DNA of 64,000 nucleotides, taken from the IMG/VR virus record IMGVR_UViG_3300005253_000186, positions 20,458 to 84,457 of that record, one strand, 5' to 3'. Both the position numbers and the translations under genes were made by a program. The stretch is from a virus. Positions 1 through 57,468 of this stretch are shown piece after piece. Below the pieces are notes generated by a model. That model saw only the letters and a program-made list of their open reading frames with translations, made no database searches and was not told the origin of the DNA. How positions within the stretch are numbered: position 1 is the stretch's first letter; each line of letters starts with the position of its first letter.

Positions 1-135
1 GGCGAACTCGTAGCGCCTCCCTTTTCTCTCGCCAGCGATCCACTCCATGAAGTGCAAGAGCGCCCTGTATTCGGTGTCCTGTTCGCTCAGCCTCGTGGCC
101 ATGGGGTACTTCTTAATGTCTCTAGCTGTCGCCAT
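1..135 (-). CDS. hypothetical protein (partial, runs off window)
   Basis: ATG at 135 preceded by AGGAG; open frame MATARDIKKYP... to window edge. Confidence 0.55.
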   Translation of the reverse strand, partial: MATARDIKKYPMATRLSEQDTEYRALLHFMEWIAGERKGRRYEFA

Positions 136-30715: not shown

Positions 30716-30791
30716 TGGTGTCGGGAGCCGGCACTGCCCCGGCGACCTCCTGTGCTTCAAACAGGCGCTCTACTATCTGAGCTATCCCGAC
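30716..30791 (-). tRNA. tRNA-Phe(GAA), atypical GGCAGTG T-loop
   Basis: cloverleaf, CCA. Confidence 0.85.
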
Positions 30792-34555: not shown

Positions 34556-34630
34556 TGGAGCTACCACTCGGATTTGCACCGAGACCTCTAGGGTACAGGC
34601 CTAGCGTGCTGCTGTTATCACTATGGCAGC
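34556..34630 (-). tRNA. tRNA-Thr(TGT)
   Basis: cloverleaf, CCA. Confidence 0.88.
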
Positions 34631-36991: not shown

Positions 36992-37067
36992 TGGCGGGCC
37001 AGAAGGGATTCGAACCCTCGATCTTCGCCTCGACAGGGCGCTGCATTGGCCGCTATGCTACTGGCCC
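36992..37067 (-). tRNA. tRNA-Asp(GTC)
   Basis: cloverleaf, CCA. Confidence 0.9.
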
Positions 37068-37375: not shown

Positions 37376-37567
37376 ATAGTCTTGACAATTCGTTCTGACG
37401 GGCCCACAGAAGACGGACTCTCTGCAAACGAGTCCTGGGCTTGAACTCTGCGTCAAGAGCAGGTTGCAGCACTTTCTTTCGCTTCTTCTTTGGCTCCCAC
37501 GGTTTCCAGTTTCTGTTCTGGTTCAGCGGGTGCGTCGGATCACAATCTATCATCGCGATCACCCCAC

Positions 37568-37706
37568 AAAAAAACCCTGCGCGCCGGTTGTCCGGCAGCA
37601 GGGTTGCTTTCGGTCAACCGCAAGGGGATTAGAGATCCCAACCCCCGACAAAACCTACTTCGGGCTTGGTCTCGGCCATCTGTGGTCGTGTCGTCTTGCG
37701 GTACAT
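37568..37706 (-). promoter_or_regulatory. leader peptide (37629-37706) plus antiterminator/terminator attenuator
   Basis: 25-codon ORF; CGGTTGACCG after the stop pairs 9/10 with CGGACAACCG inside the terminator hairpin, which ends in a U-tract. Confidence 0.65.
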
Positions 37707-37715
37707 AGTTCTAGC

Positions 37716-37745
37716 ACTGTACGACATGGCGGGAAGGGCTGTCAA
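37716..37745 (-). promoter_or_regulatory. sigma70-type promoter for tRNA cluster
   Basis: TTGACA-18-TACAGT. Confidence 0.65.
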
Positions 37746-37759
37746 GACGCAATTTGAGA

Positions 37760-38269
37760 TTAGTTCAGGCACAATCTGAAAAGATCGGCCCCGGGAAGGC
37801 TGGGCGGGCCATCCCACTGCGTATTGAACGGTTTATCCATCTTCTCGCGATCGAGTTCCCCCCTGGTGTCTGGCAGGACCATCCTTAACACGGTCCTTCC
37901 GCTCTCTTGTGCTTCTATTAGCGCAACATCCATGTTCTTAATTATATCGGAGAGCCTGTCTCCCGCCTTGAATTTCTCTCCCGATTTGATCTTCTCGATG
38001 GCGAGACCGAACAGATTGTGCGCCAAGACCGGAGGCATGGGAGCAACAATCTGAAGATCAGGATGGCCGAAACTTTCGAGGCATCCATGAGTATGATAAT
38101 TGACTCCCGTGGGCGTCTGATCGTCACCACCGCCAATCGCGTGGCAGTACCATCCGTGGTCCTCGATATTTTTCTTCTGCTTTTCCTCTATCTCCTGAAT
38201 GGACTTCTCTTTTGTTTCGTCATCGAGATTACACAGGCCGCAATTGCAACCCCTAGCGTGGACTCTCAT
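37760..38269 (-). CDS. DUF4262-like protein
   Basis: IEDHGWYCHAI...YHTHGCLESFGHPDLQI. Confidence 0.65.
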   Translation of the reverse strand: MRVHARGCNCGLCNLDDETKEKSIQEIEEKQKKNIEDHGWYCHAIGGGDDQTPTGVNYHTHGCLESFGHPDLQIVAPMPPVLAHNLFGLAIEKIKSGEKFKAGDRLSDIIKNMDVALIEAQESGRTVLRMVLPDTRGELDREKMDKPFNTQWDGPPSLPGADLFRLCLN

Positions 38270-56559: not shown

Positions 56560-57468
56560 ATGTCAGATGGTGCAAATGCGATGGCTGCGAACGCCTCGAC
56601 GATTAACGCACTGTTCGGTGAAGCACTGAACGATCCCAGTGAGATCGTCAAGCTTGCCGCAGCAGGTGGTGCGTTCATTCGTGCCCGGCTCCGTGAGTTG
56701 TCGTTCCTGCGGAAGATCATCCCGCCTGTGATGGTCACCAAGCAAGACACTCAGCGCTCGACGCTGCATGACGGTCTGGTCAAGATCGTGGACATTGAGC
56801 CTGAGTCGAAGGCCATGCCCATCACGTGGCGCGGCGAGCCGGATGCCAGGTATGTTACTGGTCCTCGGTATCAAGTGAACTTCTTCAGTATTTCCAGTGA
56901 GAAGTTCGAGAAGACGGAGCAGGAGCTCCTGTCCTACGAGTCTCCGATCACGAAGATCATTGAGGAGAACTCGGTCAAGGACATTCAAGAGGAAGAGGAT
57001 CGCACCTTCCTCGCGCACGTCGATGCCGCAATTGGCATCTCGGGCAACAGCTCCGGCGTGACCGATACGCGGGTTACCCGGAACGCGCTCACCCAGCTCA
57101 TCAAGATCATCACGGGCAAAAAGCTCAAGGTTGATCTGTTCCTGATGACGCAGGAAGACTTCGCGGACGTGCTGGCCTTCGAGGCCACGGACGTTGGTGA
57201 TCGTGTCGCGTCCGAGATCACGGTCGACGGCTACAAGTACAATACCCTCCTGGGGTACAAGCTTGTGACCACGATCAAGAACGACATTGTTCTTCCCAAG
57301 AACCTCTACGGGTTCGCGGCGCCGCAGTTCCTCGGGAACTTCTTCATTTTGAATCAGACGAAGTTCTGGATCAACAAGCGTGCGAATCTGGTCGAGTGGC
57401 AGAGCTGGGAAGACATTGCTGTTGGCATCGCCAACGTCAATGGCGTGGCAAGGATCACTTTGTCGTAG
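56560..57468 (+). CDS. major capsid protein
   Basis: 302 aa, strong RBS, strongly biased codons, RLRELSFLRKIIPP, C-terminal WEDIAVGIANVNGVARI; followed by terminator. Confidence 0.8.
   Translation: MSDGANAMAANASTINALFGEALNDPSEIVKLAAAGGAFIRARLRELSFLRKIIPPVMVTKQDTQRSTLHDGLVKIVDIEPESKAMPITWRGEPDARYVTGPRYQVNFFSISSEKFEKTEQELLSYESPITKIIEENSVKDIQEEEDRTFLAHVDAAIGISGNSSGVTDTRVTRNALTQLIKIITGKKLKVDLFLMTQEDFADVLAFEATDVGDRVASEITVDGYKYNTLLGYKLVTTIKNDIVLPKNLYGFAAPQFLGNFFILNQTKFWINKRANLVEWQSWEDIAVGIANVNGVARITLS

Follow-up and report, generated by a model that had tools for sequence, protein, structure and literature searches.

Attenuators of the trp/his type, as set out in the excerpted account of their theory, carry a small ORF between the promoter and an intrinsic terminator, with exclusive 1:2, 2:3 and 3:4 pairings and a stop codon just before region 2, and the smaller the share of regulatory codons, the lower their sensitivity (PMC1183508). 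The leader ORFs of the bmrB-bmrCD system of Bacillus subtilis (PMC4191407) and the toiL-topAI system of E. coli (PMC12121999) sense general translation stress. In the excerpts of these two reports the leader ORFs are free of amino-acid runs, stalls at several positions re-fold the leader, mutations of the start codon and of the RNA structure served to prove both systems, and the action of toiL involves RBS occlusion and Rho.

Another group of described systems comprises cis-acting RNA elements that lie downstream of a promoter and ahead of the first terminator in a long string of genes, as in lambda nut/N (PMC4496710) and in Tn916 canT, HK022 put and EAR (PMC11658703). According to the excerpted text of the latter source, canT is 341-452 nt long and overlaps orf5, and the overlapping ORF is irrelevant as a protein. 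The T4 tRNA region, as described in excerpts of the respective paper, is served by a single upstream promoter, has its terminator after the tRNA cluster and encodes, together with the tRNAs, small stable structured RNAs of obscure role (PMC2330249). A narrow search of the literature for a leader-peptide attenuator located before a phage tRNA cluster found none.

The locus analysed here lies in a 64,000-nt stretch (the window; positions 20,458 to 84,457) of the virus record IMGVR_UViG_3300005253_000186, a linear record of 84.5 kb with a CheckV completeness of about 51 %. The sequencing runs behind the record are of marine sediment origin, and no RNA run was found among those listed. The record encodes a major head protein (56560-57468, plus strand), and the search with this capsid protein recovered only phages 30-35 % identical and of about 180 kb, namely Salmonella phage Arash and three Vibrio phages (181-188 kb); these sizes are compatible with a genome of approximately 170 kb, about half of which is in the record. 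ARAGORN called 33 tRNA/tmRNA genes, every one on the minus strand, and Rfam added two above-threshold tRNAs to this list, also on the minus strand, at 30719-30791 (51.9 bits) and 34559-34630 (47.7 bits).

A first-pass annotation of the window had described, at the head of the main tRNA cluster, a sigma70 promoter followed by a nearly leaderless ORF of 25 codons, an antiterminator 9-18 nt past its stop, an intrinsic terminator and the tRNA genes, and had interpreted this arrangement as a leader-peptide sensor of tRNA loss. The observation proved to be largely right; the special interpretation was not supported. All parts of the element are on the minus strand. The -35-like hexamer TTGACA (37745-37740) begins 14 nt past the stop codon of an upstream DUF4262-family gene of 169 aa (37760-38269, minus strand, the true start being residue 36 of the listed ORF), and the -10-like hexamer TACAGT (37721-37716) follows after a spacer of 18 nt, within a conserved block spanning 37474-37725. 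The promoter-like site was present as annotated, as a match to the sigma70 consensus in 10 of 12 positions. In 40 kb the minus strand has 4 matches of at least 10/12, this site included. With these 4 matches set against 5 strong minus-strand terminators in the same 40 kb, a rough hand estimate put the chance of finding a 10/12 match at most 200 nt upstream of a strong terminator at about 0.1.

The 25-codon ORF (37706-37629, including the stop) starts with ATG at 37706, only 9 nt past the -10 hexamer, so that its mRNA would be nearly leaderless, and ends with TAA at 37631-37629. As claimed, the encoded peptide MYRKTTRPQMAETKPEVGFVGGWDL uses 22 distinct codons; they specify 15 distinct amino acids and no codon is used more than twice. 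Further downstream lies the intrinsic terminator (37605-37568), composed of a G+C-rich hairpin (37605-37573) with 14 pairs and a stability of -24.4 kcal/mol, and of a run of seven U (37574-37568) directly after it. In the 84-kb record it is one of the strong terminators on the minus strand.

What follows the terminator is a protein gene, not the tRNA cluster that had been expected directly behind it. A gene for a 59-aa protein (37553-37374, minus strand) has its ATG 14 nt from the end of the U-run and the RBS GGGGTGA at 37565-37559, 5 nt before the ATG. The product has a homologue (P0004) 63 % identical to it, and both proteins begin with MIDCDP. The first tRNA gene supported by the scanners (ARAGORN and Rfam), that of tRNA-Asp, was found at 37067, approximately 500 nt downstream of the terminator. 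Several T-arm-like GGTTCGA motifs are present on the minus strand between 37070 and 37375; neither the Rfam tRNA model nor ARAGORN called a tRNA there. The order of a promoter-like site, a short structured RNA, a strong terminator and genes with no recognisable promoter of their own is real; the nature of the first gene differs from the annotation.

The stretch between the promoter-like site and the terminator was predicted to fold into a three-way junction (37702-37617, minus strand) composed of a closing helix P1 of 8 bp (37702-37695 paired with 37624-37617), hairpin 1 (37693-37646) and hairpin 2 (37645-37625), with 0-1 unpaired bases in the junction. The folding energy of the 95-nt domain before the terminator is -36.7 kcal/mol, a value equalled by 2 of 200 shuffled sequences. 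Of 260 random 95-nt windows of this structure-rich genome, 2.7 % attain the corresponding z-score of about -2.9. An alternative, antiterminator-type fold may be formed by 37620-37585 (minus strand, -17.5 kcal/mol over 36 nt). In agreement with the first-pass annotation, the segment 37620-37611, located +9 to +18 after the stop codon, is complementary in 9 of 10 positions to the top of the terminator (37594-37585), and the two strands enclose an inner 4-bp hairpin. The 3' strand of P1 (37624-37617) overlaps the 5' strand of this antiterminator by 4 nt, which gives the layout of the classical 1:2, 2:3 and 3:4 pairings. A local 5-bp hairpin (37619-37602, -4.3 kcal/mol) was initially considered as the antiterminator; it is the wrong helix and was replaced by the 37620-37611/37594-37585 pairing.

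Classical attenuators make their decision kinetically. Equilibrium folding of the full-length RNA always favoured the terminator, with a probability of approximately 1.0 at every ribosome position, and a dismissal of attenuation on these grounds was abandoned, as the equilibrium test is invalid for a kinetic switch. The RNA was therefore modelled at the stage of emergence up to 37580, at which the antiterminator fold can form before the terminator's 3' arm emerges, and the ribosome was given a footprint from -12 to +15 relative to the P site. With no ribosome, P1 and the top of the terminator formed in the model. With the P site on codons 1-12 or 15 the model gave 8-9 of the 9 antiterminator pairs (7-9 of 9 when codons 24 and 25 were included), and with the ribosome on codons 13-14 or 16-23 P1 re-formed. 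An attenuation switch is therefore physically possible by way of the predicted 1:2, 2:3 and 3:4 topology.

The modelled behaviour departs in two respects from what had been proposed. A ribosome at the stop (codon 25) was supposed to mask the antiterminator; in the model it covers only 2 of the 10 antiterminator bases and 7 of the 9 pairs persist, hence fast translation would not restore termination. Earlier stalling was supposed to allow read-through, which is borne out in the model for codons 1-12 and 15, at which the antiterminator is favoured, and contradicted for codons 13-14 and 16-23, at which P1 re-forms. According to this model, sensing would be limited to the first dozen codons.

Controls were applied to the alternative pairing itself. 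Among 2000 dinucleotide shuffles, 11.5 % gave as strong a duplex between the upstream 101 nt and the first 21 nt of the terminator, as did 10 % of 3000 101-mers from the genome. When shuffled leaders were folded at the same stage of emergence, at least 6 terminator bases paired upstream in 87 % of 1000 cases, so an antiterminator-like alternative is to be expected from any G+C-rich leader. The complementarity is real, yet it is not above chance.

The small ORF was examined in the same manner. As many as 70 ORFs of at least 20 aa lie within 4 kb around the site, therefore the mere presence of a short ORF means little. At least 22 distinct codons were found in 9 % of 738 heads of ATG-initiated ORFs of the genome, in 3 of its 23 ORFs of exactly 25 codons, and in 30 % of 20,000 random ORFs of matched composition. 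The codon diversity is the null expectation and carries no signal, and the enrichment in regulatory codons expected of a leader-peptide attenuator is absent from the ORF. No Shine-Dalgarno sequence (GGAG, GAGG or AGGA) occurs in the 18 nt upstream of its start. Among long coding-strand ORFs of this genome a Shine-Dalgarno sequence precedes the first start in 52 of 98 cases, compared with 17 % for all ATG triplets, and three neighbouring genes carry AGGAGG or GGGGTGA as the RBS. Leaderless use of the ORF would need transcription to start exactly at the ATG. The ORF is probably incidental, an accident of sequence and not the sensor. The suggestion that a codon-diverse leader could sense the loss of any tRNA finds no backing here, given a diversity at chance level and stalls at codons 13-14 and 16-23 that would go unsensed in the model.

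The element resembles the trp/his-type attenuators in having a small ORF between a promoter-like site and an intrinsic terminator, in the predicted mutually exclusive pairings and in a stop codon just before region 2. It differs from those systems, as far as the excerpted account describes them (PMC1183508), in the lack of a regulatory-codon run and of a Shine-Dalgarno sequence, in an alternative pairing at chance level, in a stop-codon ribosome that would mask only a minor part of the antiterminator, and in the genes controlled, a small protein and tRNAs being encoded here in place of a biosynthetic operon. The view that runs of one amino acid mark the established attenuators was incomplete, as the excerpts on bmrB (PMC4191407) and toiL (PMC12121999) show. 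The leader proposed by the first-pass annotation would work like these two, hence it would be a new setting and not a new principle; bmrB and toiL are backed by mutants, whereas the present ORF, in front of a phage tRNA block, is a putative coding sequence.

Possible sources of transcription downstream of the element were then considered. No sigma70-like match of at least 8/12 is present between 37716 and 37014, that is, from the element to tRNA-Asp. The octamer GGTATAAG occurs 18 times in the window versus 0.5 occurrences expected, 17 times on the minus (gene) strand (e.g. at 42904-42897, 31178-31171, 27750-27743 and 20085-20078), often directly behind terminators and without a conserved -35 motif. 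Its last G is the first tRNA base at tRNA-Ala (27743) and tRNA-Leu (20078). GGTATAAG looks like a phage-specific promoter initiating at or near its own 3' end. Even with one mismatch allowed, no copy of it was found between 34820 and 40510. With no promoter match before tRNA-Asp, the region from the 59-aa gene down to at least tRNA-Asp must depend on read-through.

The terminator of the element is not the only strong stop located inside a string of co-directional genes. A second one (38767-38715, minus strand, -26.8 kcal/mol, seven U with the T-run from 38721) stands directly after a gene for a 213-aa protein, with the AGGAGG of the 89-aa gene 9 nt further on, leaving no space for a promoter between the terminator and this RBS. 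Such placement indicates that strong stops within co-directional gene strings are a habit of this phage, and terminators that are leaky or suppressed by a factor fit this habit better than a dedicated sensor. The antiterminator protein families PF03589 and PF06530 were not found in the record, which is about 51 % complete, N-like proteins having no usable model; PF04542 was likewise not found in the same incomplete record.

Another structured RNA was noted at 31066-30880 (minus strand), behind tRNA-Met. The whole stretch folds with -85.5 kcal/mol and ends in a terminator (-22.5 kcal/mol, seven U), to the inner arm of which a 7-bp alternative pairing becomes possible once the 3' arm is omitted. 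The sequence TGCTCTTTGACA stands after its U-run and resembles the rrn boxA. This RNA shares no fold with the element at 37.6 kb (8.6 bits with covariance model R1).

Relatives of the element were sought in several collections. The viral contigs yielded none with the DUF4262 protein, the DUF4262 alignment, the terminator pattern, the 89-aa protein or the 59-aa alignment; neither did the genome contigs with a 22-nt pattern or the 89-aa protein, nor the GenBank phages with DNA or the 89-aa protein. Metagenome contigs provided 14 loci, among which only L001, a contig of 47.7 kb, is close and the other 13 are distant DUF4262 loci. Eight of the distant loci (L002-L004, L006, L007, L010, L012 and L013) were scanned for a tRNA cluster and have none. 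The covariance model R1 matched none of the 13 distant loci and found no second copy in the window, and blastn and nhmmer detected no paralogue of the element in the genome. No Rfam family reached its threshold in 37540-37760 or, for the leader, in a 10-kb search. The best-scoring one, DUF2693-FD (19.5 bits against a gathering score of 44.5), covered the terminator hairpin only and was taken as chance.

L001 shares 97.8 % identity with the window over 1.9 kb and differs at no position between 37483 and 37843; its element is 100 % identical and hence uninformative. More divergent relatives came from contigs of four sequencing runs aligned at a likeness of at least 80 %. The X10 and X11 relatives keep the block 37474-37725 at approximately 96 % identity (9 differences and one gap over 252 nt in X10 record 4), with 581 nt of the DUF4262 gene replaced by 515 letters less than 80 % alike; this replacement fits the existence of a 60 %-identical protein, P0002. 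Homology in both ends at 37725, 4 nt upstream of the -10 hexamer, leaving the -35 outside the kept block. At the other end the block reaches 26 codons into the 59-aa gene. Beyond it the likeness of X11 drops to about 86 %, and the X11 indels in the 59-aa gene total 12 bases and keep the frame. A short contig of run X9 matches up to 37701, the foot of P1, just 3' of the ATG (weak, depth 2).

The variants seen in X10 and X11 are gentle to all parts of the element. A change of A to G at 37605 converts A-U to G-U both in the terminator and in the antiterminator; CU to AA at 37634/37633 falls into the loop of hairpin 2 and replaces Leu25 with Asn; one extra C after the stop lengthens the C-run beside hairpin 2 and adds a pair to it. 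The ORF stays open and in frame. Since these changes break neither the ORF nor any helix, they do not discriminate between an RNA fold and a peptide. No compensatory change was seen among the listed X10/X11 variants, which are a part of all the differences, or in L001. As the conserved block extends into the 59-aa gene, recent exchange of the segment, and not selection on an RNA, may account for it.

The reading that we favour, tentatively and at somewhat less than an even chance, is a non-coding structured leader or short RNA that runs into a terminator gate, the ORF being incidental. The stretch would encode a non-coding promoter-proximal RNA of about 140 nt, folded into a stable three-way junction with its 8-bp closing helix and followed by the strong intrinsic terminator, in front of the conserved 59-aa gene and a tRNA-rich block with no recognisable promoter. 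As a transcriptional gate, it would stop most transcripts coming from the sigma70-like site and from the 89-aa and DUF4262 genes and turn them into a short structured RNA, and the 59-aa gene, followed by the tRNA-like and tRNA genes, would be reached by read-through only, supplied either by passive leakage or by a phage-timed antitermination factor. Observed are the parts and their order, the predicted folds, the lack of a promoter match downstream and the conservation of the nucleotides in near relatives; firing of the promoter, a halt of most polymerases at the terminator and the way in which read-through is set are inferred. Support for the gate comes from the strength of the terminator, the rarity of the fold among shuffles, an ORF at chance level and with no Shine-Dalgarno sequence, the close spacing of the U-run and the 59-aa gene, the lack of a promoter or GGTATAAG downstream, and the retention of the block 37474-37725, with variants leaving the fold intact, while the DUF4262 gene was replaced. 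It is weakened by the frequency of equally stable windows in this genome, by the chance estimate for the promoter match and by the P1/antiterminator/terminator topology, which fits a conditional switch better than a plain stop.

Several other explanations have to be set against the gate. The hairpin could do nothing more than end the transcription unit of the 89-aa and DUF4262 genes, whose 3' UTR would be structured, with promoter match and ORF arising by chance. The DUF4262 stop at 37760 is followed by no other strong terminator, a promoter match of this quality has a chance of roughly 0.1 by hand estimate, and the -35 lies outside the block kept in X10/X11; yet such a 3' UTR would be better conserved than its supposed gene, and in 40 kb of the minus strand the site, with a perfect TTGACA and 10/12 overall, is one of the 4 top matches. 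We consider this explanation rather unlikely. A stand-alone gene for a trans-acting small RNA, with its own promoter and terminator and only incidentally placed before the tRNA block, would account for a stable fold of about 140 nt bounded by the promoter-like site and the terminator, and for conservation that begins 4 nt upstream of the -10. The species I and II RNAs of the T4 tRNA region, as reported in the excerpted source (PMC2330249), and the second structured RNA with a terminator at 31066-30880 offer parallels. This explanation is unlikely, as R1 revealed no paralogue or homologue in the window and the 14 loci, and transcription of the 59-aa gene 14 nt behind the U-run would be left unexplained. 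In T4 the terminator follows the tRNA cluster in the same excerpt, whereas here a strong terminator precedes it.

The remaining candidates make the terminator conditional. In a riboswitch-like or factor-binding attenuator the junction would bind a ligand, a protein or an RNA that stabilises P1, and the freed 3' strand of P1 would otherwise form the antiterminator. An overlap of the two strands, here of 4 nt, is typical of expression platforms, the order of promoter, structured domain, terminator, RBS and gene is the proper one, and relatives show conservation at the nucleotide level; on the other side, no Rfam family reached threshold (best 19.5 versus 44.5 bits), a junction with 0-1 unpaired bases has no obvious pocket, the antiterminator is at chance level and no covariation is visible, which makes this a quite improbable candidate. 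We find it very unlikely that ribosomes translating the ORF choose between the antiterminator (37620-37585) and the terminator, so that slow decoding switches on the downstream tRNA genes. The predicted topology, the modelled outcomes with the ribosome on codons 1-12 or 15 and without any ribosome, the lack of a promoter match downstream, an ORF that stays open in the X10/X11 variants despite Leu25 to Asn, and the existence of leader ORFs for general translation stress such as bmrB and toiL (excerpts in PMC4191407 and PMC12121999) speak for it. It is opposed by the missing Shine-Dalgarno sequence and the exact start that leaderless use demands, by codon diversity and antiterminator at chance level, by the 7 of 9 antiterminator pairs that survive a terminating ribosome and the re-formation of P1 on stalls at codons 13-14 and 16-23 (both in the model), by the low sensitivity expected of one codon per tRNA according to the excerpted theory (PMC1183508), and, weakly (depth 2), by the X9 match ending 3' of the ATG.

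A real conditional switch of either kind, opening the 59-aa gene and the tRNA block when translation of the phage or the host is impaired, e.g. by tRNA cleavage by a defence nuclease, with ribosomes stalled on the first dozen codons or a bound factor as the sensor, is in our judgement a long shot; if true, control of phage tRNA supply by an attenuator would be known here for the first time.

The favoured gate is closest in position to the cis-acting elements of the lambda nut/N (PMC4496710), canT, put and EAR (PMC11658703) type, which, in the excerpted descriptions, also precede the first terminator behind the promoter of a long gene string. Tn916 canT with orf5 sets the precedent for an ORF that overlaps a functional leader RNA and is not needed (excerpt of PMC11658703). 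The domain described here, at about 95 nt, is much shorter than the 341-452 nt of canT, and no antitermination protein family was found in this record of about 51 % completeness. The T4 region, in its excerpted account (PMC2330249), shares with the present locus small structured RNAs encoded alongside a phage tRNA cluster.

If the element is only a gate or the end of a small RNA, it belongs to routine phage transcription architecture, and its value would be mainly in the annotation of an uncultured, tRNA-rich phage of marine sediment. What is worth keeping is that a promoter-less 59-aa gene and the first stretch of the tRNA block are placed behind a strong terminator and depend on read-through, since the timing and conditioning of phage tRNA supply are poorly known. 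The tRNA block itself is mosaic between near-identical phages: 4968-8007 of L001 and 36586-35076 of the window differ, and in the middle of its block this 98 %-identical relative carries an extra tRNA-Glu(ctc) and tRNA-Gly(gcc) and an altered gene order.
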